A stretch of 64,000 nucleotides of DNA, taken from Squalus acanthias. Lineage: Eukaryota. Location: assembly GCA_030390025.1 (NCBI GenBank), contig CM059432.1, forward strand, positions 69,876,001 to 69,940,000. The letters are read 5' to 3'. The notes beneath the pieces were generated by a model. The model was not told where the DNA came from, did not search any database, and saw only the letters and a program-made list of their open reading frames with translations. Shown in pieces: positions 1,959 to 64,000 of this stretch (the first letter of the stretch is position 1; every line of letters begins with the position of its first letter). Position numbers and translations under genes: made by a program.

Positions 1959-2290
1959 TGAAAGATAAGCATGTTTATCTACCCAAGGGAAGCACAGTGT
2001 TGGACAAGAGTAGTTTGGCTTCTGTTCGTTTTGAAGTTTGTCGTATTAAATTCGAATGTGCAGTTACCTTGCGCTTTGTTATTCATTGAGATTAGAGTCA
2101 TATAGGAAAGGGTACACTTATTTGATGCTGACTTATTTGGTCAGGTGATGATTATTGGCATGGCCATGTAAGAGCAAATAGGGAAGATGTTTTTTAATAC
2201 ATAGATACATAGAAGATAGGAGCAGGAGTAGGCCATCCGGCCCTTCGAGCCTGCTCCGCCATTTAATGAGATCATGGCTGATCCTCCAAT

Positions 2291-5239
2291 TCAGTATCCC
2301 GTCCCCGCCTTCTCTCCGTAACCCTTAACCCCTTTTGCCTGTAGAAATATATCTAATTCCCTCTTAAATATATTTAATGAGCTGGCGTACACTGCCCTCT
2401 GTGGCAATGAGTTCCACAGGTTCACCACCCTCTGAGTGAAGAAATTCCCCCTCATTTCTGTCCTAAATGGTTTAGCCCTTATCCTTAAATTATGTCCTCT
2501 AGTTCTGTTCTCACCCGCCAAGGGAAACATTCCTTCTGCATCTAGTCTGTCTAGACCTGTCAGAATTTTATACACTTCTATGAGGTCCCCTCTCAATCTT
2601 CTAAACTCCAGTGTGTACATCCCTAAACTACATAGTCTCTCCTCATAGGTCAATCCCGCCATTCCTGGTATCAGCCTGGTGAATCGCCGCTGCACCCCCT
2701 CCATGGCAAGAACATCTTTCCTCAGATGAGGCGACCAAAACTGTACACAGTACTCGAGGTGTAGTCTCACCAGTGCCCTGTACAGCTGCAGCAAGGTATC
2801 CCTGTTCCTGTATTCCAACCCTTTTGCTATGAAGGCCAGCATACCGTTTGCCTTCTTGACCGCCTGTTGCACCTGCATGCTCGCCTTCAGTGACTGGTGT
2901 ACAAGAACACCCAGGTCTCTCTATACTTCCCCCTCTCCCAATTTATTGCCATTTAAATAATAATTTGCCCTCCCGTTCCTGCACCCAAGGTGGATAACTT
3001 CGCACTTGTCCACATTATAGTGCATCTGCCATTTATCCGCCCAATCACCCAGTCTGTCCAAATCGCTCTGGAGCTTCCTGGTCTCCTCCTCTGAGCCCAC
3101 CCCCCCTCCTAGTTTAGTGTCGTCTGCAAATTTGGAAATGCTGCATCCGACTCCCTGATCCAGGTCATTAATGTAAATTGTGAACAGCTGGGGACCCAGG
3201 ACAGATCCCTGTGGTACCCCACTTGTTACTGCCTGCCATTCAGAAAATGAGCCGTTTATTCCAACTCTCTGTTTTCTATCTGACAGCCAGTTCTCTATCC
3301 ACGTCAATACTTTCCCCTTTATCCCATGAGCTTCAATTTTCCATGCTAATCTTTTATGTGGGACCTTGTCGAAGGCCTTTTGGAAGTCCAGGTACACCAC
3401 ATCTACTGGCTCTCCCCCATCTATTTTACCAGTTACTCCCTCAAAAAATTCCAATAGATTAGTCAAGCACGATTTACCCTTTGTAAATCCATGTTGACTC
3501 TGTCCTATCCTGTCCCCATTTGCTAAGTGCTCCGCTATTTCATCCTTAATGATGGACTCCAGCATTTTGCCCACAACTGATGTAAGGCTTACAGGTCTGT
3601 AATTACCTGCTTTTTCCCTACCCCCCTTTTTGAATAGTGGGGTAACGTTAGCTACCCTCCAATCCATGGGCACTGTTCCCGAGTCTAATGAATTCTGAAA
3701 AATCATACTTAGTGCATCCGCTATCTCTAGGGCCACCTCCTTCAGTACCCTAGGATGCATGTTATCAGGCCCTGGGGATTTGTCCGCCTTCAATCCCTTT
3801 AGCTTCCTTAACACCATATCCTTAGAGATATTGATTTGCGTCAGTTCCTCCTTTGCCAATGTCCCTATTTTTCCCGATATCCCAGGGAGGTGTTTTGTGT
3901 CTTCCTTCGTAAAGACTGACCCAAAGTATGCATTTAGTTGGTCTGCCATTTCCTTATTTCCCGTTATATATTCCCCCGTATCTGACTGCAATGGACCAAC
4001 TTTGGTTTTCACCAGTCTTTTCCTCTTGATATACTTATAAAAGCTTTTGGAGTTAGTTTTTATATTTTCCGCCAGCTTGCTTTCGTAAGCTATTTTGCCC
4101 CTCTTGATTAAGCCCTTTGTCCTCCTTTGCTCTATCTTAAACTGTTCCCAATCTTCCGCTCTGGCGCTTTTTTTGGCTATTTTATACGCCCTATCTTTGG
4201 ATTTTATGCTGTCTCTAATTTCCCCTGTTATCCACGGTTGAGTCACCTTTTTAGATTTCCTTTTATGCCAGATTGGTATAAACAATTTTTGCAATTTTGT
4301 CATTCTATCTTTAAATGCTTGCCATTGTTTATCTACCTCCAGTCCTCCCAGGAACGTTGTCCAATCAGACCTACTCAGTTCCCGTCTAATGGCATCATAA
4401 TTCCCCTTGTTTAAATTCAGGACCTTAGTCTCTGAGTCAATTTCTTCGCTCTCCATTTCGAGTGAGAAATCGATCATGTTATGATCGCTCTGACCCAAGG
4501 GTCCCCGTACAACAAGATTACTAATTAGTCCCTTCGCATTGCACAGTACCCAGTCCAATATAGCCTGTTCCCGAGTTGGTTCCTCGACATATTGATCCAG
4601 ATAACCATCCCTTAAACACTCAAGGAATTCCTCCTCCTCATTATTTTTACTGATTAGGCTAGTCCAATCTATATGTAAGTTAAAGTCACCTATGATGACA
4701 GCTGTGCTCTTATTGCACGCTTCTCTAATTTCCCTCGTGATGCCCTCCCCAACCTCTATTTTACTATTTGGAGGCCTATATACCACTCCTATTAATGTTT
4801 TTCGCCCCTCGCTATTTCTTAACTCCACCCATATAGATTCTGTATTAACTGAGTTAATATCCTTCCTTTCAATTGCATTTATCCCCTCTTTTACCAGCAA
4901 TGCTACCCCTCCTCCCTTTCTTTTTTGTCGATCCTTCCTAAATACTGAATACCCCTGTATGTTAAGCTCCCAGCCCTGCTCACCCTGCAACCATGTTTCC
5001 GTAATCCCAATTAGATCATAATTATTAACCTCTATTTCCACAGCTAATTCATCTACCTTGTTCCTGATGCTTCTCGCATTAAGGTATAAAACCCTCAGGC
5101 TTTTTTTATGCTCACATTTTTTATGAATTAGTTTGGCCCTTTGTTTTTTGTTCCTCACCCTTTTACCATTTATTTCTGTCTGCCTTTCACTTTCCTCTAT
5201 TTCACTACATAGGTTTCTAGCCCCCTGCCATACTAGTTT
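2291..5239 (-). pseudogene. CR1 ORF2 (APE endonuclease + reverse transcriptase) with a single nonsense codon at 2921-2923
   Basis: Motifs [38 protein letters not shown] and FADD. ORFs 2921-5158 and 2291-2878 are in one frame, linked by V*RDLGV (expected VQRDLGV). The frame is open upstream to 5257. Confidence 0.95.
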
Positions 5240-6180
5240 AAATGCTCCCGAACTGCTTTATCAAAAATTACCCCGAGAACATCAGTTCCATCTTTGCACA
5301 GGTGTAGACCGTCCCTTTTGTATAGGTCACACCTACCACAAAACTGGTTCCAATGCCTCAAAAATTTAAAACCCTCCCTCTTACACCACTGCTCAAGCCA
5401 CGTATTTAGCCTAACTATCCTGTTCTCTGTACTCTTACTAGCACGTGGCACTGGTAGTAATCCAGAGATTACTACCTTCGAGGTCCTACTTTTTAGCTTG
5501 GCTCCTAACTCCCTAAATTCTACTTGTAGGACCTCTTCCCTTTTTTTAGCTACGTCGTTGGTACCAACATGTATCACGACAACTGGCTGTTCCCCCTCCC
5601 CCTCCAGAATGTTCTGCACCCGCGCCGAGACATCCTTGACCCTTGCACCAGGGAGGCAACATACCATCCTGGAGTCTCGGTCGCGACCACAGAAACCCCT
5701 ATCTATTCCCCTTACAATCGAATCCCCTATTACTATAGCCCTGCCACTCTTTTTCCCTCCCTTCTTTGCAACAGAGCCAGTCATGGTGCCATGAGCCTGG
5801 CTGCTGGTGCCTTCCCCCGATGAGTCATCCCCCCCGACAACAGCACCTAAGGCGGTGAACCTGTTGCTAAGGGAGACAACCCCAGGGGATTTCTGCACTA
5901 CCTTCCTGCCCTTGCTATGCCTTTTGGTCACCCATGTACTATCTACGCTGGCCTTAACCTGCGGTGTGACCAACTCACTAAATGTGCTATCCACAACCCT
6001 CTCAGAATCGTGGATGCTCCAAAGTGAGTCCATCCGCAGCTCAAGGGCCGTCATGCGGTCCCACATGAGCTGCAGCTGGACACATTTCCCGCACACATGG
6101 TTGTCAGGGACACAGGAAGCGTCCCTGATTTCCCACATGTTACAGGAGGAGCATGACACAGGTCCGAGCTCTACTGCCAT
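5233..6180 (-). CDS. CR1 ORF1: N-terminal Cys motif, coiled coil, SGNH/GDSL esterase
   Basis: ATG start, 315 aa; CSSC...CGKC; SGNH blocks GDS, PGA, GTND and DGLH. Confidence 0.93.
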   Translation of the reverse strand: MAVELGPVSCSSCNMWEIRDASCVPDNHVCGKCVQLQLMWDRMTALELRMDSLWSIHDSERVVDSTFSELVTPQVKASVDSTWVTKRHSKGRKVVQKSPGVVSLSNRFTALGAVVGGDDSSGEGTSSQAHGTMTGSVAKKGGKKSGRAIVIGDSIVRGIDRGFCGRDRDSRMVCCLPGARVKDVSARVQNILEGEGEQPVVVIHVGTNDVAKKREEVLQVEFRELGAKLKSRTSKVVISGLLPVPRASKSTENRIVRLNTWLEQWCKREGFKFLRHWNQFCGRCDLYKRDGLHLCKDGTDVLGVIFDKAVREHLN

Positions 6181-6629
6181 GACTTAACCCTTATATTACT
6201 TTTTAATTTTCTAGTTTTAGTTTATTTATTGACTTTTGTTTTCCCGAAGCTTACTTAGACCAATGTATACTGTACTCCTCTTATTCCTTTTTAAACTAAC
6301 CGAATCCCACTAGTTTTAGTTTTACTTTCTAGGAAGGTTTGAGGAAAGTACTTACAAGTTAGTCTTACCTCCCTGGTCTTTCGCTGACTTCCCGGTCTTG
6401 TGTCCCCTTGGTCCTACGCCGACTTCCCGCTCCTCCCGGTAACCATCCTGCCCTGCTGAAAAGAAACTGAGACCAAAAAATTTGTGACCTCTGTTTTTAG
6501 ACTGCTAAAAGACTAGTAGGTTAGAGGAGGAGGGCAGGTGGGGGTTCCTACTCTGTAGGAACTCGGGTTTAAGCCACCACCCTCCTTAAATGCCGTTCAC
6601 CTGGGTGCTTCCCACCTGGTCCGCTTCCA

Positions 6630-6894
6630 GTCTCGTCGCTCCCGACAACAGCCTGTGAAGAAAAGCCCGTGAAAGTGAGTTCAAATACTCACAGCACCTC
6701 CGGTCTCGTCGCTCCCGACAACAGCCTGTGAAGAAAAGCCCGCGAAAGTGAGTTCAAATACTCACAGCACCTCACAGCACCTCCGGTCTCGTCGCTGCCG
6801 ACAACAGCCTGTGAAGAAAAGCCCGCGAAAGTGAGTTCAAATACTCACAGCACCTCACAGCACCTCCGGTCTCGTCGCTGCCGACAACAGCCTA
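6630..6894 (-). repeat. Tandem 73/83-bp monomers at the CR1 5' end (three full, one partial)
   Basis: GTCTCGTCGCT recurs at 6630, 6703, 6786 and 6869. Units 2 and 3 carry a 10-bp internal duplication (ACAGCACCTC). Confidence 0.9.
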
Positions 6895-7079: not shown

Positions 7080-8000
7080 AGTCATTGTGATGCTCTCTTC
7101 CATGTACTTTTGCCTCCTTCATGGGCTGCTTCATGAGCATTGTCCAAGTCCAGGCCTTTTTGTATACAACTATGCATGACACACGCTCTGGAGCATACTG
7201 CAGAGCTACTTCCAACCTGTTGAGGCAACAAAAGTTCTCCTTTCATATTCCAGTGGTCATGATGACAACCCTTGTAGAGGAATGTGCCTCATTGTAGTTG
7301 TTTTTTGGGGGGCTACTCTTAATGAGGGCACTATCCATGGAGGTAGGCCATAGGGTTTGTCACCCAGAAACCATCCATTGATACGATTTTCTTCCCTAAA
7401 GAGATCAGGAAGGGCCAAAATTCAAAATCTGAATATATTGTAATAACTTGCAGCATATCTTTTCTTGAATTGTAGGATCCTTTGCATGTTGTCACATTCA
7501 ATCATTTCATTCAAGGAATGGAAGCCCTTCCTGTTGAGGGAGTTTTCTGTAGGAGTTTTCAAAGCAACCTGAGTGACTTCTATTGCACCCTGGACCTTGG
7601 GAAAACCGGCAACCCCAAAAAACTGGATGTCCCTATTTCACTGCTGCCTTTCTGTAATGCTGTGATACCAAATTTAATGAATACATCAGCTCTCCTGTCA
7701 CGTGCATCAGTCAACTGCTGAATGCATTGCCTGTACTGCACCCTGTCTGATATTACAGAGATCCCCATGACTGCCTCAAATGGGCCTGTGCCACAAGAAT
7801 TGAGTGCAATTACCACCTTCATAGCCAGAGAGAGAGCAGTGTGGGCAAATGACTGTGGCTGCAGGTCCTCATGCAATACATGGCAGAGCTGCACTATTAC
7901 CTCTTTGGTGAAGCGCACTCTTCTTAAGTACATCTCCTCACTAATGTTTTCATATGACCTGTGTTGCCTCAATATTCTCAGGGAGGTAAATATCAAATGG
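7080..8000 (-). pseudogene. Degenerate PIF/Harbinger transposase relic
   Basis: YENISEE..RRVRFTKE..LC..LHEDLQP..KVVIALN..QLTDA and ALQYAPERVS match the intact transposase at 46604. Boundaries are approximate. Confidence 0.8.
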
Positions 8001-8898
8001 GGTCCGTCCTGCTCCCTGATTTTCCTTTGCTCCATCCGGTGCTGATCCTCCACCTCTGTGATAATGACATACAAGGGTATGCCTTTAGGGAATGGCATAC
8101 CTGCACCTGAGAATGGGTGAAGGATAACAGGGTCAAAACCTTCTAGTGATCTCACACTTTCAGAAGCAGTGAAAAGCAAGTTCAGGTCTGTGACGGTCTC
8201 AAAAGAGATGGGAAAGTTCGAGGAAAGCTGTCAACTGAGAGTTCTGCTGCTCTTCTTTCTCAACCTAATCTCTCATTCACTAACTGACAGCAAAATATTT
8301 ATTGAAACATTTATCATGTAACTCCCTCTACTAAAAGCTAGGTGTGAAGGCTGTTCATTAGGACACCATTGTAACCTTTTCTGTTTCATTAGATATAGTA
8401 GGTGACAGCGAGTCAAGTCCCAGTACATCTGACCATGCCAGCACTTCATAGCACACACATTCACTCACACTCTTCCCTCTTAAGTACAAACCCAAAAACA
8501 TGCAACCCACAGCATTTAGAGAGTTAGCAAGAGCAATGGCGTAGGCAGGATTTTTTTTCAGGGGGGTTGTTTGGATATGAGATTGCCAGACCAAACAAAA
8601 ACAGATTTCTATGCACAACTAAACACTTGTGGAGAGTTTGCTCATCAACTGGGGAAATTTGTAATGATTAAAAATAGCTTACATTCCCATTGGCTCTTTC
8701 CATCATAGAATTTTAAAAATGGTTCTTTTAAGATTCGAAATGTTGGGTTTGCATCAATTGGAGTTATGTTGGAAATAGTGTAAAGCCAAAATGGTGTTTG
8801 ACTACCTGGTCAAGGTGGTCTTCTGCCAAACACCACATGCCAAACTAATACTGGATTGACTACAGTTGTACCCCCACTATAAAACTGTTTATTCTAAT

Positions 8899-9767: not shown

Positions 9768-11762
9768 TACTTGGTTCAATTGGTAACACTCTTGCCTCTG
9801 CATCGGAAGATCTGGATTTAAACTCTATACTTGAATTTGAGTTTGCAATTTAGGCTAACACTCCAGAGCAGTACTGAGAGAGTATAGCATTGTTAGAAAT
9901 GTTAGGGGAGAAATTCGTGTGGCTTGTGCCACACGTTAGCGCCAGGAGATGGCACTAAAATGCTGTTGACAGCTGTAACGACAGCTGATGCCGGTTCCAG
10001 CACCGCATATCAATGGTGCCAGTAGCGCTGCCGGTCACCTCGATCGCCAGGGAACTCGCCATGATGGACATCGTGATGGCAGTGAGGGTGCAATGCTCAC
10101 TGGACGCCCGATCTCCAACATTGGATTTAGCCACTTACCTTAACGGTAGCGCAGACAACAACAGGGAGAGCTGATGTCTACAAGCAGGAAGCAGGCTGCA
10201 GCAGCGATATTTAAAGGCACCATCCCCAATCAGCTGTACCTGACAGGGTTTTGCAGTTTCAGTGCCTGTTTGCTACTTCTTGCAACTGAAACAGCTCTCT
10301 TCAGTTATTTTAAGTATTTTGGTAACAGGTTCATTCAAGTGCAGAAGTCACTCATTATCTGTTAAAGGCTTCTGCTCACAACACTTGCTCACAGTCATGG
10401 GGGCTGCGGGATTGTGGGATTACCTCAGGAGGACAACGAGGCAGAGGAAGATGAGGAGGAAGAGGAAAAGGAGGAGGAGGAATGGGGGGAGGGCGGAGGC
10501 AGCGAGACAATCGGTCTTCTGGATAGGCTGTCCGTGATCGGCTTATCAGACTCTGATTCACATGAATGAAACCCCCGTTGCTCACCACATCCCCATCATA
10601 CAATCCATGTCACATGGCGTAACACAGCGTCCTCCTGGGTGCAAAGGTGAAATGAGAGATACCACAAAATATTCCAAACACCATTAATAAATGTATCTAA
10701 AAACATATCACACATATGACATGAATTCTAATCACTAATGACACTTGTGCCTGCCATAGTTGAATAGCTGTCATTGTGTGCAAGGTGTGAGATGTGGGTG
10801 TGAGTGTTGCTAGGTAGAGATTGTTGCTGGGTGAGTGCTGGGGGTGTGGTGCATTGAGCAGTGTGTGAAGCTTGTGGTACAGATAGTGGTATGTAGCATT
10901 TGTTGAAGCCTTCACTAACCCTGACCACCTGTGTGAGCTCATTAAACTTCCTCCTGCATTGGGTGTGGGACTGGCGAGCACAGTGCTGCCCGTGACGCGG
11001 TGTGCCACCTCCCTCCACATAGTCCGGCAGACTTGTGGCGAGGGCCTCCGGCCAGTTGGTACAGGACTGCCCGCCTTCTCTCCACCACTAAAACCAATAC
11101 CTCCAAAGCTTCCTCGGAAAACCTCTGGGCTCTCTCGCTGGGGCGGCGATCTGCCATCAGCATTTGTAAATAAGTGCTTCTTCTCTTTGTCCTTCTTATG
11201 GTTGTTGAGGCAACTGCACACCCAACAACACTGTGAATGAGGTGTTGCAGCTTCAATGGACTTCCCTTTTAAGTAGTGAAAAAACCCTGTGGCAATCATT
11301 ACTTGCGTTTAGACTACACCTGATATTGGTCTATCTTTTCAGTGTAATGCCAATGACCTTGGGTTTTTAGACTAGAATCATGACTGCAATCATTTACATG
11401 AGGAGTGAGGACGAATTTTGCGTGCAGTCTAGATGATTTTCAACTGGCGCTACTTAACCATTTTTAGTCTAAACACCGCCCACATTCCTTGGCTATAATG
11501 AATTTCTAGCCTGTTGTTTTTTGGATGAGACATTAAACTGCTTAACTATTTGGATGAGTATTGAAAGAAGGACAGGGAGTTCTCTCGTGTCTCAGTTAAC
11601 ATCCTCCCTCAAACTAATACCACCAAATAAAACAGATTAACTGGTCATTTTTGTGGGACATTGCTGGTACAAGCATTTGCCTAAATAAAAACAGTCATGG
11701 CATTCAAAAATAATTCATTGTGTTTTAGTGTAAAAGGGGGGTATACAAATACAAGTATTGTT
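9768..11762 (+). mobile_element. Deu-domain (SacSINE1-like) SINE split by the Harbinger derivative at 9905-11511
   Basis: The tRNA-like head (9768-9903) and its continuation (11512-11762) are colinear with the uninterrupted copy at 39384-39780. Confidence 0.7.
9905..11511. mobile_element. Internally deleted Harbinger derivative: transposase 5' stub on +, Myb/SANT exon 1 on -
   Basis: TIRs GGGGAGAAATTC / GAATTTCTAGCC. Minus-strand translation RAQRFSEEALEVLV..RRAVLY and QCRRKFNELTQVVR followed by GTCAGT. Confidence 0.8.
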
Positions 11763-43800: not shown

Positions 43801-44602
43801 AAAACTCCAGTTGAGGCCGAATCAGTGTTTTTTAAAGGTTCATCATAATTTCCACACTTTTGTACTCTATACCTCTATTCATGAAGCCCAGGATCCCATA
43901 AGTTTTTTTAATTGCTTTCTCAACCTGCCCTGCCACCTTCAACGATTTGTGCACCTATACCCCTCGGTCTCTCTGTTCATGCACTCCCTTTATGATTGTA
44001 CCCTTTAGTTTATATTTCCTCTCCTCATTCTACCAAAATGTATCACTTCACACTTTTCTGCATTAAAATTCATCTGTCACGTGTTCGCCCATTCCACCAG
44101 CCTGTCTATGTCCTCTTGAAGTCTATCACTAACCTCCTCACTGTTCACTATACTTCCAAGTTTTGTGTCATCTGCAAATTTTGAAATTGTGTCCTGTACA
44201 CCCACATCCAAGTCATTAATATATATCAAGAAAAGCAGTGGTCCTAGAACCGACCCCTGGGGACCCCACTGTCTACCTTCCTCCAGTCCGATAAACAACC
44301 GTTCACCACTACTCTCTGTTTCCTGTCACTTAGCCAATTTCGTATCCATGCTGCCACTGTACCTTTTATTCCATGGACTTCAACTTTGCTGGCAAGCCTA
44401 TTATGTGGCACTTTATTGAACACCTTTTGGAAATCCATGTACACGACATCAACCGCATTGCCGTCATCAACCCTCTCTGTTACCTCATCAAAAAACTCGA
44501 TCAAGTTGGTTAAACACGATTTGTCTTTAACAAATCCGTGCTGGCTTTCCTTAATTAATCCTACACTTGTCCAAGTGACTGTTAATTTTGTCCCTGATTA
44601 TT

Positions 44603-45424
44603 GGGCTGGATTTTATCAATGGGGACGCATTGGGGGCGGGCCTGCTGGTTGTCGGGTTTCAGTCCCGCTCCCAACGACGTCCGGCCAACCCACGCTATTT
44701 TCCCTTGATTGACCTTGTTAAGCCCACCCTGCGGACTTAGCAGGCCAATTAAGGGCAAGCCGATGACAGAGTACATCAGCGTATGACGTTTCATCTGTCA
44801 AAAATTTTTGACAGATGAATTGTCAGCGTTTGACAGCTTTGAGAAGCTGTCAAACACTGACAATCTCTGTTCTATGGTGAGTCCTTGTACTGAAGACTCA
44901 CCAAACCTCTTTCTTTAGCAGAAATCAGATGGCTGCTGCATCGGAGAATGCAGCAGCCATTCTGTCATCTCTGCCGTTGAGATGAGGAGCCTCTGGATCC
45001 TCAAGGGTTGAAGCCTGCAGGAAGAAACAAAGGTAAGTAAACTTTTTCTAACACTTTACACTCACCTCCCATACTTACCTCTCCACACTTGCACCCATCA
45101 CTCACCTCCACAGCGGACTTCTCGACCCCTCTCACCCCCGCAGATCCACTGCTCGCCTCGCTGACCCTGGCGAGGTTCGCAGCCGTCGGGAAGCCCGCAC
45201 TTGTGTGGGTAAAATGGGATAAGCCTCTTAACAGGCAGTTCATTGGCTGTCATCCCCTTCCCGCCTCGAAGAGACGGGTCCCTGCGCGAGTCGGGGACCC
45301 GCCTCCCGGGAAGATGGCACGGAGGCGGGTTGGGAGCGGGGTCGGTACCCGCTCCCAGTTTCTGCAATTTTCCCAGCAGTCCCGCCTCCGTACCCGCCTT
45401 CCCAGGGCTGGCAAAATTCCCCCC
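44603..45424. mobile_element. Harbinger-type MITE with an ATT TSD and an internal hairpin array
   Basis: TIRs GGGCTGGATTTT / AAAATTCCCCCC. ATT at 44600-44602 and 45425-45427. Confidence 0.85.
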
Positions 45425-46603
45425 ATTGTTTCTAAATGCTTCCCCACTACCGAGGTTAAACTGATTGGTCTATAGTTGCTGGGTTTATCTTTAGACCCTT
45501 TTTTGAACAAGGGTGTAACATTTGCAATTCTGCAGTCCTCTAGCACCACCCCTATTTCTAAGGAGGATTGGAAGATTATGGCCAGTACCTCCTTCTTCCT
45601 TCACTTCTGTCAGCATCCTAGGATGCATCCCATCCGGTCCTAGTGACTTATCTACTTTAAGTACAGCCAGCCTTTCTAGTACCTCCTCTTTATCAATTCT
45701 TATCCCATCCAGTATCTCCTCTACCTCCTCCTTTACTATGTCTATGGCAGCATCCTCTTTCTTGGTGAAGACAGATGCAAAGTACTCATTTAGTACCTCA
45801 GCCATGCCCTCTGCCTCCATGCGTAGGTCTCCTTTTTAGCCCCTAATCAGCACCACCCCTCCTCTTACTACCCGTTTACTATTTATATGCCTATAGAAGA
45901 CTTTTGGATTACCTTTTATGTTAGCTGCCATTCTATTCTCATGCCCTCTCTTTGTCCCTCTTATTTTCTTTTTCACTTCTCCTCTGAACTTTCTATATTT
46001 AGCCTGATTCTCAGATGTATTCTCGACCTGACATCTGTCATATGCACTATTTTTCTGCTTCATCTTGCTCTCTGGGCTGGATTTTCATAGGGCCGTTGAG
46101 GCGGGATTGGAGGCGTGTGGGGGGTTAAAATTGCAGAAACTGGCGGGCGGGCCCAAACCCACCTCCATCCCGCCTCCACGCAATTTTGATGAAATCGTGT
46201 CTACTGGTCCCGTCTCCGTCCCACCTCCAAGAGGCGGGAGAGGCCGTTAATGCCCTTAACAAGCCCTAAATTGGCTCTGTAATGCCATTTTGATAGTTAT
46301 TTGCTAGTTTAACCCTTTTCCCACGTGAAGCACGCCTGATCTGAAACACGCTGGTGAAACCTGGCGGGAGCACAAGTGGATTGCTGACTATCAGCTGCAG
46401 CTCAACCATTAAATAGGAGATTTGATCAGCCATCATTTGCAGGTGGCAGAACTTTGTTGTCACAGGTCTGGGGGAACTTTTAGAAGGCATAACCACAGCT
46501 CTGGAAGTTTTGAGCCTGACACGCATCTCCAGTGTGACCTCCTGGGAAACCCCTCTCGCCACCTTCATTGAGCGCTTCCTCAACTGAGGCATATACCAGA
46601 AGC

Positions 46604-50082: not shown

Positions 50083-51867
50083 TCCTCCTGCAGTTGCCTC
50101 TAAGATACAAGTCCAAAAGCTTGGCAGTCTGCAGAAGAAGCAAGGCTTGTTGCAGACCTTAAATGCAGCAGTAAGGATGACGTCATCGGAGGCGACTTTC
50201 AGACTGGAATAACTCATTGGCCATGGATTCCCACACGTTGGAACTCAATTGGCCAATTAAGTTAAAATCGCATCATTCTCCCACATCGATCTAGATTCAG
50301 GTGGGCAACACGAAAAGCGGATAACACAACCCCAACCCGCCCTAGTATCAAAATCCAGCCCTCTATCTCTTTCGTCATCCAGGGAGTTCTGATTTTAGTT
50401 GCCCTACTTTTCCCCCTAGTGGAAATGTACCTCGACTGTACCCGAACTGTTTCCTCTTTAAAGGCAGCCCATTTTTCCACTACAGTTTTGCCTGCCAATC
50501 TTTGATTCCAATTTACCCGGGCCAGATCCGTTCTCATCCCACTGAAATTTGCCTTCAGCCAAATAAATATTTTTACTCTAGATTGCTCCCTGTCCTTTTC
50601 CATAGCTAATCTAAACCTTATGATAATATGATCACTGTTTCCTAAATGTTCACCTACTGACACTTGCTCCACTTGACCTACTTCATTCCCCAGAACCAGA
50701 TCCAGCAATGCCTCCTTCCTCATTGGACTGGAAACATAATGATCAAGAAAATTCTCTTGAACACACTTCAGAAATTCTTCCCAATCCCTGCCATTTACAC
50801 TATTACTATCCCAGTCTATGTTATGATAGTTGAAGTCCCCCATTATCACTATTCTATAGTTCTTGCATCTCTCTGTAATTTCCCTGCAAATTTGCTCCTC
50901 CATATTTTCCTACTAGTTGGTAGCCTATAGAATACACCTAGTAGTGTAATGGCACCTCTATTATTTCTTAACTCTAGCCATATAGATTCTGTCCTTGACC
51001 CCTCCAGGACATCCTCTCTCCAGCACTGTAACATTCTCCTTAACCAATACTGCCACACCACCTCATATCTTTCCTGAACACCCTATCTCCAGGAATATTT
51101 AATACCCAATCCTGCCCTTTTTTGAGCCAGGTCTCAGTTTCATCATTTTTTGCTGGTAACGGGTGGCGTTAAGCCCCTGAATTTTTAGCTGCTAGTTCCT
51201 TGGCCCAGACGGGACCCAGTGTATGCTGGTACACCCAGTGCGTTGAGGTGTACCAGCTTCCAGAAGGGTGTATGGGCCCTACCAGGGGATCCAGTTCAGG
51301 GAAATGGCCAGGACCCTTGAACAATAACAATTTAGTTTTTTAAAGTTGTAGTATTGGCCCCTTTTGTAATGTGGTTGACGGGGGCTGTGAATCATGTCTT
51401 TGTAGGGGGTGCTTCTGCCCCCATAGTAGGAAGCTACCCGAATTTCCAGAAGCATGGGGCAATCAGGCGCCCATAGTGCTGTGGGCATCCGTCAGCCCCA
51501 TGCAACTCAGATGCCCATCCACTGATCCCACATACACTGACAGTGTTAGCATTGGTGGGCACTGGCAGGCGCAATCTTGGTGTAACTGTCAGGATCACAC
51601 CTTGTATATTTTTGGGGCCTATATGATTAATTTCTTTTTGTTTTGCAACATTTACTAAAATTAAAGAATCAGAATCTTTTCAGGGAACCACAAACCATGC
51701 AAACAGTATCTAATAACTTCAACAAAAGTTTTATAACTCAGGGTTCCTATGTGCGCAGCCAGCTTTGATTGTCGTCAGTAGCACTAAAACCCACAACCAC
51801 CATATTGTGATGAAATATTTTTACTACTTCAGTGTTTCATTTTCTCAATTGATGTTAAATCTTGCAG

Positions 51868-54035: not shown

Positions 54036-55562
54036 AAGAACATAAGAAATAAGAGTAGGAGTAGGCCATATGGCCCTTCGAGCCTTCTCTGTCATTCAGT
54101 AAGATCATGGCTGATCTTCGACCTCAACTCCACTTTCCCGCCCAATCCCCATATCCTAGAGGCCAAAAGTCTATCTATCACAGCTTTGAATATACTCAAC
54201 GACTCAGCATCCACAGCCCTTTAGGGCAGAGAATTCCAAAGATTCACAACCCTCTGAGTGAAGAAATTCCTCCTCATCTTTGTCTTTAATGGCCGACCCC
54301 TTATCCTGAGACTATACCCCCTAGTTCTAGACTCTCCAGCCAGGGGAAACAACCTCTCAGCATCGACCCTGTCAATCCCTCTCAATATCTTATATGTTTC
54401 AATGAGAACACCTCTCATTCTTCTAAACTCCAGAGAGTATAGGCCCAATCTACTCAATCTCTCCTCATAGTACAACCCTCTCATCCCAGAAATCAGTCTA
54501 GTGAACCTTCATTGCACCACCTCTAAGGCAAGTATATCCTTCCTCAGATAAGGAGACTAAAACTGTGCACAGTACCCCAGGTGTGGTCTCACTGTACAGT
54601 TGTAGTAAGACTTCCTTACTCTTATACTCCAACCCCCTTGCAATAAAGGCCAACATGCCTTTTGCTTTCCTCATTGCTTGCTGTACCTGCATGCTAACTT
54701 TCTGTGTTTCCTGTATGAGGACACCTAAATCTCTCTGAACACTAACATTTAATAGTTTCTCACCATTTTAAAAAATTCTGTTTTCCTATTCTTCATACGA
54801 AAGTGAATAACCTCATATTTCCTCACATTATACTCCATCTGCCACCTTATTGCCCACTCACTTAACCTGTCTATATCCCTTTGCAGGCTCTTTGTGTCCT
54901 CCTCACAGCTTACTTTCCCACCTAGCTTTGTATCATCAGCAAACTTGGATACATATTGCACTCGGTCCCTTCATCTAAGTCATTAATATAAATTATAAAT
55001 AGCTGAGGCCCAAGCACTGATCCTTGCGGCACCCCACTAGTTACAGCCTGCCAATCTGAAAATGACCCGTTTATCCCTACTCTGTTTTCTTTCCATTAAC
55101 CAATCCTCTAACCATGCTAATATATTACCCCCAACCCCATGAGCTGTATTTTGCATAGCAATCTTTTATGTGGCACCTTATCAAATTCCTTTTGGAAATC
55201 CAAATATACTACATCCACTGGTTTCCCTTTATCTATCCTGCTAGTTACATCCTCAAAAACGCTAATAAATTTGTTAAACACGATTTCCCTTTCATAAAAC
55301 CATGTTGACTCTGCCTAATCATATTATGATTTTCTAAGTGCCCCGTTACCACTTCCTTAATAATGGATTCCAGCATTTCCCCGATGACTGATGTCAGGCT
55401 AACTGGCCTGTAGTTCCCTGTTTTCTCTCTCCCTCCTTTCTTGAATAGCAGGGTTACATTTGCTACCTTCCAATCTGCTGGGACCGTTCTAGAATCTAGG
55501 GAATTTTGGAAGATCACAAACAATGCATCCACTATATCTGCAGCCACCTCTTTTAGAACCCC
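54036..55562 (-). mobile_element. 5'-truncated CR1 (RT and 3' end), decayed
   Basis: GNYRPVSLTS, FADDTKL and FFTQRVVNLWNSLP; (TCTTATGT)-type tail. Confidence 0.9.
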
Positions 55563-55574
55563 TTTAAGTAAAAT

Positions 55575-57783
55575 GATGGGACATCTGAGACCCATTGCAT
55601 GCAATTCTTGTGCCATGTGGGAACTCCAGGACACTCCATGTGTCCTGGATAACTATTTGTGCAGGAAGTGCCTCTAGCTGCTGGAACTCAAGCTCAGGGT
55701 TTCTGAGTTTGAGGAACGGTTGGAATCACTGTAAGGCATACAGGTTTTTTCAGGAGGAAGGGGAACAGCCAGAAGTCATGGTCCATGTTGGAACCAATGA
55801 CATAGGGTTGAGGTCCAACAAGCAGAGTTTCAGGAGCTAGGGTGGAATTTAAAGAGCAGGACCTCAAAGTTGGTAATCTCTGGATTACTGTCAGTGCCAC
55901 GTGCTAATGAGTATAGGAGCAGTAAGATAAGACATGTTAATTCGTGGCTGGAGAAGTGATGCAGGCAAGAAGGCTTCATATTCCTGGGGCACTGGGACCA
56001 GTTCTGGGACAGGAGGGATCTGTACAAGATGGACAGCTTGCACCCCAACAGGGCTCGGACCAGTGTTCTGGCAGTGAGGTTATCTCGTGCTGTGGGGGAT
56101 GATTTAAACTAATTTGGCTGGGGAAGGGGCACAAGGATAAAGCATTAGAGAGGAGATACAAGGTGCACAGAGGACTGGGGGTGACAAACACCATTAAAAT
56201 AAAGAGTAGTTCAGAAATAAGAGGGATCAGACAGGGGGGAAATGTGAGACAGGCTAGGATGGGTTAGGAGTGCATGTGCATAAAGGCAGAGACCGTGGTA
56301 AATAAGGTTGGTGAGCTGCAGGCATAAGTAGCCATATAGTTAACATGAGGAGGATAGTAACAGACTTCAGTAGGACATAGGCAGACTGGTAAAATGGGCA
56401 GACACATGGCAGATGAAATTTAATGTAGAGAAGTGTAATGTAATACATTTTGGAAGGAAGAATGTGGAGAGGCAATATGAACAAAATGGTACAATTTTAA
56501 AGGGGGTGCATGAAATGAGGGACCTGGGGTGTCTGTACACAAATCTTTGAATATGCAGGGCAAGTTGAGAAGGCTGTTAAAAAAGTACATGGGATCCTTG
56601 GTTTTATTAATAGAGGAATAGAGTACAAAAGCAAGGATATTATGCTAAAACATGATAAAACACTGGTTAGGCCTCAGCTAGAGTATTGTGTTCAATTCTG
56701 GGCACCACACTTTAGGAAGGATGTCAAGGCCTTGGAGAGGGTGCAGAAGAGATTTACTAGAATGGTACCAGGGATGAGGGACTTCAGTTATGTGGATAGA
56801 CTGGAGAAGCTGGGGTTGTTCTCCTTAGAGCAGAAAAGATTAAGAGGATATTTGATAAAGGTGTTCAAAATCATGAATAGTTTTGATGGAGTAAATAAGG
56901 AGAAACTGTTTCCAGTGGCAGAAGGGTCAGTAACCAGAGGACACAGATTTAAAGTTATTGGCAAAAGAACCAGAGGACATGAGGAAACATTTCTTTACAC
57001 AGCAAGTTGTTGTGATCTGGAATGCATTGCCTGAAAGGGTGGTGGAGGCAGATTCAATAATAACATTCAAAAGAGAATTGGATAAATACTTGAAGGGGAA
57101 AAAAATTACATGGCTATGGGGAAAGAGCAGGGGAGTGGGATTAATGCAATAGCTCTACCAAAGAGCCAGCACAGGCATGATGGGATGAATGGCCTCCTTC
57201 TATGCTGTCTCATTCTATGATTCTATGAGATTATGATATAGTGGCAATAACAGAGACCTAGCTCAAACAAGGGGAGGAATGGGCAAAATATTCCTGGCTA
57301 CAATATATTCAGGAAAGATAGGGAAGGAAAAAAAGGAGGGGGAGTGGTAGCATTGATCAAAGATACTGTTACAGTACTAGAAAAGGATGATGTACTTGAG
57401 GATTCAAAGACAGAATCTATTTGTTTAGAATTAAGGAACAATAGCTGGGTGTATACTATAGGCCACCAAATAATTGGAAGGAGATAGAGGAGCAAATTTG
57501 TAGGCAAATTGCAGAAAGTTGCAAAATCTAATGAGGGACTTCAATTATCCTAATATAGACTGGGAAAATAACAGTATGAAGGGCAAAGAGGGGGAGGAAT
57601 TCCTGAAATGTGTACAGGGAAACTGTCTTGATCAGTATGTTTTCAGCCCAACAAGGAAGCAAGCAGTAATGGATCTGGTTCTGGGGAATAAAGTGGGACA
57701 AATGGATCATGTTTCAGTAGGGGAGCATTTGGGAAACAGTGATTACACAGGTTTAGAGTAGTTATGGAAAAGGACAAGGAAAG
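55575..57783 (+). mobile_element. Decayed CR1 5' half (ORF1 and APE) with a nested CR1 3' fragment at about 56345-57227
   Basis: CNSCAMWE..CRKC, VGTND, the ORF1 end DDLN* at 56098-56112 and the APE start; APE resumes (DYDIVAITET) after the ATTCTATG tail at 57228. Confidence 0.85.
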
Positions 57784-62844: not shown

Positions 62845-64000
62845 AAATTGTTCATCCCTGTTTGGCATAAAAATAAAACAAAAAAGGTGACTCAACCGTG
62901 GCTAACAAGGGAAATTAGGGATAGCATAAGATCCAAGGAGAGGACATATAAAATGGCCAGAAAAAGCAGCAAATCTGAGGATTGGGAGCAGTTTAGGATT
63001 CAGCAAAGGAGGACAAAGGGATTAATTAAGAGGGGGAAAATAGAATATGAGAGTAAGCTTGCAGGGAACATAAAACCTGACTGTAAATGCTTCTATAGAT
63101 ATGTGAAGAGAAAAAGATTGGTGAAGTCAAGCGTAGGTCCCTTGCAGTCAGAATCAGGGGAATTTATAATGGGGAACAAAGAAATGGCAGCCCAATTAAA
63201 TACATACTTTGGTTCTGTCTTCACAAAGGATACAAATAAACTCCCAGAGATGTCGGGGAACATAGGGTCTAATGAGAGGGAGGAATTGAATCAAATCAGT
63301 ATTTGTAGGGAAATGGTGTTATGGAAATTGACGGGATTGAAGGCCGATAAATCCCCAGGGCCTGATAATCTACATCCTAGGGTACTTAAGGAAGTGGCCC
63401 TAGAAATAGTAGATGCATTGCTGGTCATCTTCCAAAATTCTATAGACTCTGCAACAGTTCCCATGGATTGGAGGGTAGCTAATGTAACCCCACTATTTAA
63501 AAAAGGTGGTAGAGAAAAAACGGGGAATTATAGACTGGTAAGCCTGACATCGGTAGTAGGGAAAATGATAGAGTCCATTATAAAAGATGTAATAGCAGAG
63601 CACTTGGAAAACAGTGACAGGATCGGACAAAGTCAACATGGATTTACAAAAGGTAAATCATGCCTGACTAATCTACTGGAATTTTTTGAGGATGTAACTG
63701 GTAGAATAGATAAGGGAGAACCAGTGGATGTGGTGTATTTGGACTTTCAGAAGGCTTTCGATAAGGTCCCGCATAAGAGATTAGCGTGCAAAGTTAAAGC
63801 ACATGGGATTGGGGGTAAGGTACTGATTTGGATAGAGAACTGGTTGGCAGACAGGAAGCAAAGAGTTGGAATAAACCGTTCTTTTTCCGAGTGGCAGGCA
63901 GTGACTAGTCGGGTACCACAGGGATCGGTGCTAGGACCCCAGCTATTCACAGTATATATTAATGATCTAGACGAGGGAACTAGATGTAATATCTCTAAGT
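62845..64000 (+). mobile_element. 5'-truncated young CR1 ORF2 running off the window end
   Basis: Frame [37 protein letters not shown] appears open to the window end; close to the 2197 copy. Confidence 0.92.

Follow-up and report, generated by a model that had tools for sequence, protein, structure and literature searches.

A U_UUA_AAC heptamer at the ORF1/ORF2 junction of vertebrate CR1 retrotransposons as a candidate programmed -1 frameshift site

The CR1 element and its ORF1/ORF2 junction

The DNA analyzed here (the window) is a 64,000-nucleotide (nt) stretch of the Squalus acanthias genome (assembly GCA_030390025.1, contig CM059432.1, forward-strand positions 69,876,001 to 69,940,000), and its minus strand carries a long interspersed nuclear element (LINE) with two open reading frames (ORFs). 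We classify the element as a vertebrate CR1 LINE, a label based on its domain content and on the likeness of its junction to that of CR1-labelled consensuses. As placed by the ORF list and Pfam, ORF1 (5233..6180, minus strand, as are all parts of the element) encodes 315 amino acids (aa) followed by TAG and combines a Cys-rich N-terminal region with an SGNH/GDSL esterase domain at residues 150-298 (about 5733-5287; PF13472, E value 4e-11). Its nearest named homologs come from sharks and rays. ORF2 encodes an APE endonuclease domain (4481..5080, residues 60-259; PF03372 and PF14529) and a reverse transcriptase (RT) domain (2990..3622, residues 546-756; PF00078, E value 5e-31). In the window copy a premature TAG (2921..2923) lies after the RT core, and the frame then runs from 2920 to 2291, the normal end of ORF2. 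The coding region is flanked by tandem repeats of the 5' untranslated region (UTR), with units of 73-83 nt (6626..6893), and by a 3' UTR (2200..2293) made up of a stable stem-loop (z score -2.73, with 0 of 200 shuffles folding as well) and a short-repeat tail, without poly(A). A 3' UTR that is structured, ends in a short-repeat tail, and lacks poly(A) is a hallmark of CR1, and canonical vertebrate CR1 likewise has an esterase ORF1, an APE-RT ORF2, and the same junction motif in its consensuses.

The 3' end of ORF1 reads CAT TTA AAC TAG. Its final two codons and the base before them form a slippery heptamer, U_UUA_AAC, which has the X_XXY_YYZ pattern in ORF1 phase (T_TTA_AAC, 5242-5236) and adjoins the stop codon (5235-5233), TAG in this copy. 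The -1 frame is stop-free from 5257 to 2924, its translation opening SSSGAFKLVWQG..., and its first ATG comes at 4477 (codon 261), past the Exo_endo_phos match (residues 60-259). The stretch of this frame from the slip site to APE encodes a basic, low-complexity linker (5099..5235) that is AUG-free in the window family. The ORF2 frame includes a GTG at 5158, and the G-run that occupies +11 to +15 (5221..5225), counted from the heptamer, is either a candidate stimulator or merely a set of Gly codons in the linker. An ATG at 5231 opens a mini-ORF of 4 codons in the third frame (5217..5231), outside the ORF2 frame, which is missing from several other families. A sequence-only reading of the window had reported the correctly phased heptamer before the ORF1 stop, an ORF2 open from 5257 with its first ATG after APE, the in-frame GTG, and the third-frame ATG that closes after 4 codons; all of these coordinates hold.

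A bare TTTAAAC is frequent by chance, with 18 matches in the window; in-frame X_XXY_YYZ heptamers are found at just 13 of 4,592 other ORF1 codon positions. Because of the premature TAG, the trans-frame product of the window copy itself would end at about 1,086 aa. In the sister copy L222, which is 98.4% identical to the window copy over 4,650 nt, the -1 frame stays open over 983 codons starting at the heptamer, and the predicted trans-frame product is 315 + 981 = 1,296 aa. The fusion of about 1,300 aa proposed earlier for this element therefore holds for intact sister copies and not for the window copy.

The window also contains a second, diverged CR1 ORF1 remnant, decayed and on the plus strand (55573-56112), which is 56% identical to ORF1 and is followed by ORF2 pieces with internal deletions. 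It ends in T_TTA_AAC_TAA (56103..56112) and then a G-run.

Conservation of the junction across copies and species

Copies of the young family to which the window element belongs were collected with a query that stopped before the heptamer (68,392 candidates, of which 150, all 100% identical, were scored and 30 copies fetched). The heptamer and TAG were present in 30/30, the -1 frame was open over all 500 codons read in 23/30, and the first ORF2 Met was still codon 261, with no in-frame AUG before APE, in 25/30. The near-identity of these copies shows that the arrangement belongs to an active element; it offers no evidence of selection.

A wider sample from the same genome comprised 150 loci fetched with five divergent ORF1 queries (fetching of own-genome loci relied on protein queries), 20 near-full-length copies, and 800 kb of evenly spaced stretches. 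ORF1 ends were placed with a profile lacking the last 13 residues, which gave 211 matches, 163 of them distinct. TTTAAAC lay near the expected place in 155 of the 163 distinct ends, and the exact phase together with the stop was kept in 147. In the evenly spaced stretches, the full heptamer was present at 7/8 ORF1 ends, the remaining one reading G_TTA_AAC. Searching these stretches from the APE side returned 15 N-terminal matches (window copy included), of which 8 had an upstream ORF1 end, all bearing the motif, and 7 had neither an ORF1 end nor the motif. Conservation of the heptamer and the -1 phase in intact copies, on which the sequence-only reading had staked its case, is thus borne out both by the young copies and by the distinct ORF1 ends.

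The ORF1-end matches form 14 clusters, with a median identity of 61% between representatives. Codons were tabulated for the 12 family representatives that were in register; two singletons with upstream indels, in both of which the motif is present, were left out. Leu314 is encoded by TTA in 12/12 representatives, compared with 0/56 at five other conserved Leu columns and a TTA share of 18% in ORF2 bodies, and Asn315 by AAC in 12/12, the AAC share in ORF2 bodies being 34%. Codon 313 encodes six different amino acids among the 12, and its final base is always T. The longest invariant run is TTTAAACTA (9 nt; the runner-up has 4 nt), and the ORF1 stop is TAA in 10 and TAG in 2. Judged from these codon columns, the heptamer is conserved beyond protein-coding need.

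Among ORF1 homologs from other species, 41/120 end in LN, or 44/126 after a second search, an alligator protein among them. Two 360-aa homologs, which we take to resemble bird CR1 ORF1, also end in LN. The teleost and invertebrate esterase homologs examined lack an LN end. The residue before LN is compatible with an NNU codon in 43/44, although this is a weak test, since K/E/Q/M/W are about as scarce at positions -6 to -8. No relatives turned up in scans of viral contigs, and scans of prokaryotic genomes gave distant SGNH hydrolases only. One LN-ending CR1 ORF1 homolog (P0009), 58% identical to the shark-type protein, carries the database label Pseudomonas aeruginosa, probably as a result of host contamination.

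Published consensuses also carry the junction. The supplement of PMC13343379, whose entries appear to span a few hundred bases each, contains TTTAAACTAG 12 times and TTTAAACTAA 8 times, match counts that have no denominator. By eye, 17/20 of the TTTAAACTAR matches lie at an ORF1 end or an APE start; of the other three, two are in 5' UTRs and one is in an AT-rich L2. The labels of consensuses with the junction motif are AllMis, CroPor, AquCat, AmiCal, LatCha, CalMil, PriPec, HypSab, ScyCan, SquAca, and AldAff, which we read as alligator, crocodile, bullfrog, bowfin, coelacanth, chimaera, sawfish, stingray, catshark, dogfish, and a teleost, and most of these junction motifs are followed by a G-rich tract. 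We conclude that the junction feature is real and general to CR1 elements with an esterase ORF1.

Routes to the translation of ORF2

The linker between the ORF1 stop and APE cannot be aligned between families and varies in length. The modal stop-to-APE distances in the eight larger families (unfiltered) are 134, 134, 155, 197, 197, 200, 206, and 206 nt, all of which are 2 mod 3, that is, in -1 phase, and this phase is found in 108/141 copies having an APE motif. Among the open copies listed, stops are absent from the -1 frame and number 2-12 in the other frames; shuffled linkers from ten copies, two of them chosen for being open, remain open in 0.3-11% of trials. A linker that is stop-free from the heptamer onward fits translation that enters at the heptamer, because a later start would leave the first part of the linker unconstrained. 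In four of the eight families no AUG precedes APE, and the first Met is mostly codon 255, 178, 166, or 60.

Programmed -1 frameshifting is probably the best explanation of this junction, and it would yield an esterase-APE-RT fusion of about 1,296 aa. Three of the four testable defining features of a -1 frameshift signal are present, namely an X_XXY_YYZ heptamer in the 0 frame, a -1 ORF open from the slip site, and conservation beyond coding need; a classical downstream structure was not found. The heptamer corresponds to the X_XXY_YYZ slip consensus with Y = A and Z = C (PMC3542737), and U_UUA_AAC is among the most shift-prone heptamers on mammalian ribosomes (PMC5009743). Under this mechanism, the majority of ribosomes would halt at UAG/UAA and release the ORF1 protein (ORF1p). 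In a minority, tRNA-Leu and tRNA-Asn would slip in tandem from UUA AAC to UUU AAA, and the slipped ribosomes would continue via the linker into APE and RT. The outcome would be a high ratio of ORF1p to ORF2 protein (ORF2p), as in gag-pol. The likeliest helpers would be a slowly decoded stop beside the slip site and, as a candidate, the G-run at +11 to +15.

The stimulator is the main gap in this mechanism, and the results of the search for one weigh against frameshifting. The 56-121 nt around or after the window site form no stable fold (-5.7 to -5.9 kcal/mol, z score +0.3 to +0.4), which agrees with the sequence-only reading, where no clear 3' stimulatory structure had been seen; the 3' UTR of the element, folded with the same tool, served as control and gave the z score of -2.73 reported above. 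Among 15 representatives there was no conserved local structure (z scores -2.7 to +2.2, one below -2), a duplex search with the G-rich tract gave no long-range partner shared between them, and two-tier G-quadruplexes were predicted in 5/15, the window family not included. Energy folding, a method that does not cover pseudoknots, thus revealed no conserved hairpin, duplex partner, or G-quadruplex that could act as a stimulator 5-9 nt downstream. Base pairing between the G-tract and the 3' UTR was considered as a stimulator and rejected, as it ranked among the top three partners in just 4/15 representatives. The G-run itself is constant: GGG is invariant at +11 to +13 from the heptamer in 12/12 representatives, and GGGG occurs within +5 to +16 in 13/14 representatives, compared with 5.9% of 12-nt windows in ORF2 bodies. 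The G-run may be either a signal or a consequence of coding for a Gly-rich linker.

Further points on the same side concern sampling, phase, and start codons. Five of the six protein queries used for fetching loci contained the terminal LN. The third base is also invariant in 10 other of 61 codon columns (D290 is GAC in 12/12), and the families share ancestry, so that 12/12 does not amount to 12 independent occurrences. In two small, decayed clusters of 4 copies each, the -1 phase is not dominant. In three of the eight families an in-frame linker AUG occurs at codon 7, 16, or 19, with the heptamer kept, and in the eighth family a linker AUG stands at codon 18 in 2/4 open copies. The earlier statement that no in-frame AUG lies upstream of APE stands for the window family. 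AUG-free linkers are not rarer than chance (P 0.26-0.44). That linker AUGs occur at about the chance rate suggests that an AUG is dispensable, yet possible as a second route; and as initiation of mammalian L1 ORF2 is described as independent of its AUG, a missing AUG does not force a fusion.

Starts of this kind are the basis of an unlikely alternative, in which termination-reinitiation, or initiation in the linker at a near-cognate codon (e.g., GTG 5158) or a linker AUG, would produce a separate ORF2p, as in L1 and SART1. The in-frame linker AUGs of three families, one of them just 11 nt past the stop and in good context, agree with it, as do the coupled UAAUG used by SART1 (PMC3708506), the AUG-independent initiation described for L1 ORF2 (PMC5009743), and the failure to find a structured stimulator at the CR1 junction. 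Reinitiation nevertheless leaves unexplained why TTA AAC and the preceding T are fixed before the stop, and why the whole linker is stop-free and changes length in threes. The linker AUGs moreover lie at unrelated positions, at about the chance rate, and the families that have them keep the heptamer. Nor is the SART1 arrangement seen, as the ATG at 5231 falls in the third frame, while an in-frame linker AUG is present in just 3/8 families.

Three further alternatives appear less probable still. Splicing to an acceptor near the junction (after TAG, or between CAG and G) could link a 5' exon, or a portion of ORF1, to ORF2; the many donor-like motifs in 5' UTRs would be compatible with this, as would the AG that most junctions have no more than about 10 nt from the stop. 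The junction context is, however, purine-rich and lacks a polypyrimidine tract, and no conserved 5' UTR AUG could be donated (1/30); a 5' UTR ATG was rejected as copy-specific on the same count. Among contigs of four public runs, three of whose RNA status was guessed, 0/6 listed joints end at 5200-5260, the 5' UTR being outside the query, and two contigs cross the junction collinearly; such contigs cannot show absence of splicing, nor expression. One tested donor-to-junction join had no genomic copy, a search made with no positive control. We consider splicing very improbable, and the same applies to transcriptional or RT slippage in junction homopolymers, which would generate a few RNAs with +1 nt encoding the fusion. 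The G-runs just before the heptamer are indeed unstable in some families, and +1 variants fuse the ORFs in L042, L051, and L056, but no upstream G-run exists in the window family, just T3A3C, in ribosomal phase, is invariant, and length changes there were not seen as a class. Hardly credible is the idea that TTTAAACTAR is kept for some other reason (a protein-binding site, a promoter element, or a required Leu-Asn end) while ORF2 is reached by another route. It would accommodate the family-level stop, which is always TAR and never TGA although slippage alone does not demand TAR, but it does not fit the teleost and invertebrate homologs without an LN end, and a DNA motif need not hold codon phase with both frames. 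On balance, we favor programmed -1 frameshifting.

Two observations on CR1 5' UTRs may be added. Many AG-GTAAG donor-like motifs and an acceptor-like tract occur in them (window 6340-6480, minus strand; L222-L227 and L240), and in several families a donor-like motif stands directly before the ORF1 ATG.

Some copies are naturally fused. L042/L241 (G000:C10:954500-960000) has one extra G upstream and consists of a single 1,290-codon frame, encoding 1,289 aa with esterase, APE, and RT, a single frame with which the proposed fusion geometry fits. L051 and L056 likewise have one extra base before the heptamer, which places ORF1 and ORF2 in one frame. The three fused copies lie among unfused ones in a single sub-branch of poor resolution and are thus no evidence of a replicating fused lineage. 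The fused copies may be homopolymer slips or assembly errors.

Known recoding systems, distant relatives, and other features of the window

The CR1 junction shares with coronavirus IBV (U_UUA_AAC) and with retroviral gag-pol the heptamer, its phase, its place at the end of the upstream ORF, and a polymerase in the -1 frame. It differs from the viral sites in that no stem-loop or pseudoknot was detected 5-9 nt downstream, in that the stop follows directly, and in its host, an element without long terminal repeats (non-LTR) and without a protease that could cut the fusion apart. Frameshifting by -1 has a precedent among LINEs: a review legend (PMC5911963) states that it is needed for the APE-RT ORF2 of Dictyostelium TRE5-A/TRE3-A, which are also APE-type non-LTR elements with -1 geometry but belong to another clade and have another ORF1; the legend draws no link to CR1. 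In Paramecium LINE groups 1-3, +1 frameshifting, reinitiation, or readthrough has been suggested for ORF2 (PMC5405496); in contrast to CR1, these elements form a ciliate clade with +1 or in-frame geometry, and the passage mentions no -1 heptamer. SART1 (UAAUG coupling) and mammalian L1 (unconventional reinitiation) have the same bicistronic ORF2 problem and make a separate ORF2p, whereas in CR1 the two ORFs overlap, in -1 phase, over a slippery site, and a usable AUG is lacking in several families.

Among the papers listed by full-text search, none connects CR1 with ribosomal frameshifting; the 1997 papers on chicken and turtle CR1, subscription journals, and Repbase lay outside its reach. By term look-up, "frameshift" is absent from the main text of PMC13343379, PMC2734521, PMC8665684, PMC11303007, PMC3905857 (ZfL2-1 esterase), and PMC3708506. 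In the passages listed, PMC2734521 uses "frame-shift" for mutations only; the frameshift passages of PMC11835228 concern retroviruses, and the opening 300,000 characters of PMC5009743, a review of frameshifting, do not contain "CR1".

More distant esterase-bearing LINEs have a different junction. We examined 80 such loci from metagenome contigs, probably invertebrate host DNA, and TTTAAAC was found near the ORF1 end in 0/59 scored motif matches. Their 37 full-length ORF1 ends all use TGA, with TGA-C in 30 (17 CTA, 10 CCA), and APE is in frame 0 in 17/21 scorable cases. As UGA-CUA is a type II readthrough context (PMC3542737), stop-codon readthrough is a candidate here, which would be another recoding signal at the same place. 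An in-frame ATG occurs three codons on in 14/37, so reinitiation is also possible in these relatives. Among the ORF1 ends of L122-L200, L167 and L199 have TAG-G at the same place. The homolog P0110 reads through the position that matches the teleost-type junction.

It is possible, and we put it forward tentatively, that a broader scheme underlies these observations. CR1, a LINE described as the dominant retrotransposon of most vertebrate species (PMC13343379), may produce RT exclusively in the form of an ORF1-ORF2 fusion, by means of a -1 signal that is free of structure (heptamer, adjacent stop, and a G-run lying at the ribosome entry channel) and has persisted from sharks to crocodilians; relatives that bear an esterase may arrive at the same fusion by UGA readthrough, and a membrane-binding esterase tethered to APE-RT would then be a general design of this LINE group. 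How ORF2 is translated from a bicistronic LINE RNA is a standing question, and the junction offers a short, exact, and testable answer for CR1. If frameshifting does take place, CR1 annotations in which ORF2 begins at a downstream AUG or GTG have the wrong N terminus, retrotransposition constructs need an intact junction, and one polypeptide carries the esterase together with the endonuclease and RT. CR1 would moreover supply a natural case of -1 frameshifting that lacks the classical downstream structure, a case relevant to stop codons, G-runs, and host proteins as possible stimulators of slippage.

Several other features of the window were noted. A near-perfect inverted repeat at 1781-1958 has 87-nt arms that are 97% complementary across a 4-nt gap. 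It is probably a mobile repeat, because a similar sequence interrupts a CR1 copy in L260. Open frames on the minus strand at 7580-8230 and 10942-11268 resemble decayed Harbinger-type transposon genes; in Pfam, the former had no match and the latter a weak Myb/SANT match below the cut-off (E value 0.05). Further fragments of ORF2 from related LINEs lie at 44008-46063, 50364-51138, 54770-55559, 57229-57746, 62845-63999, and 2-574.

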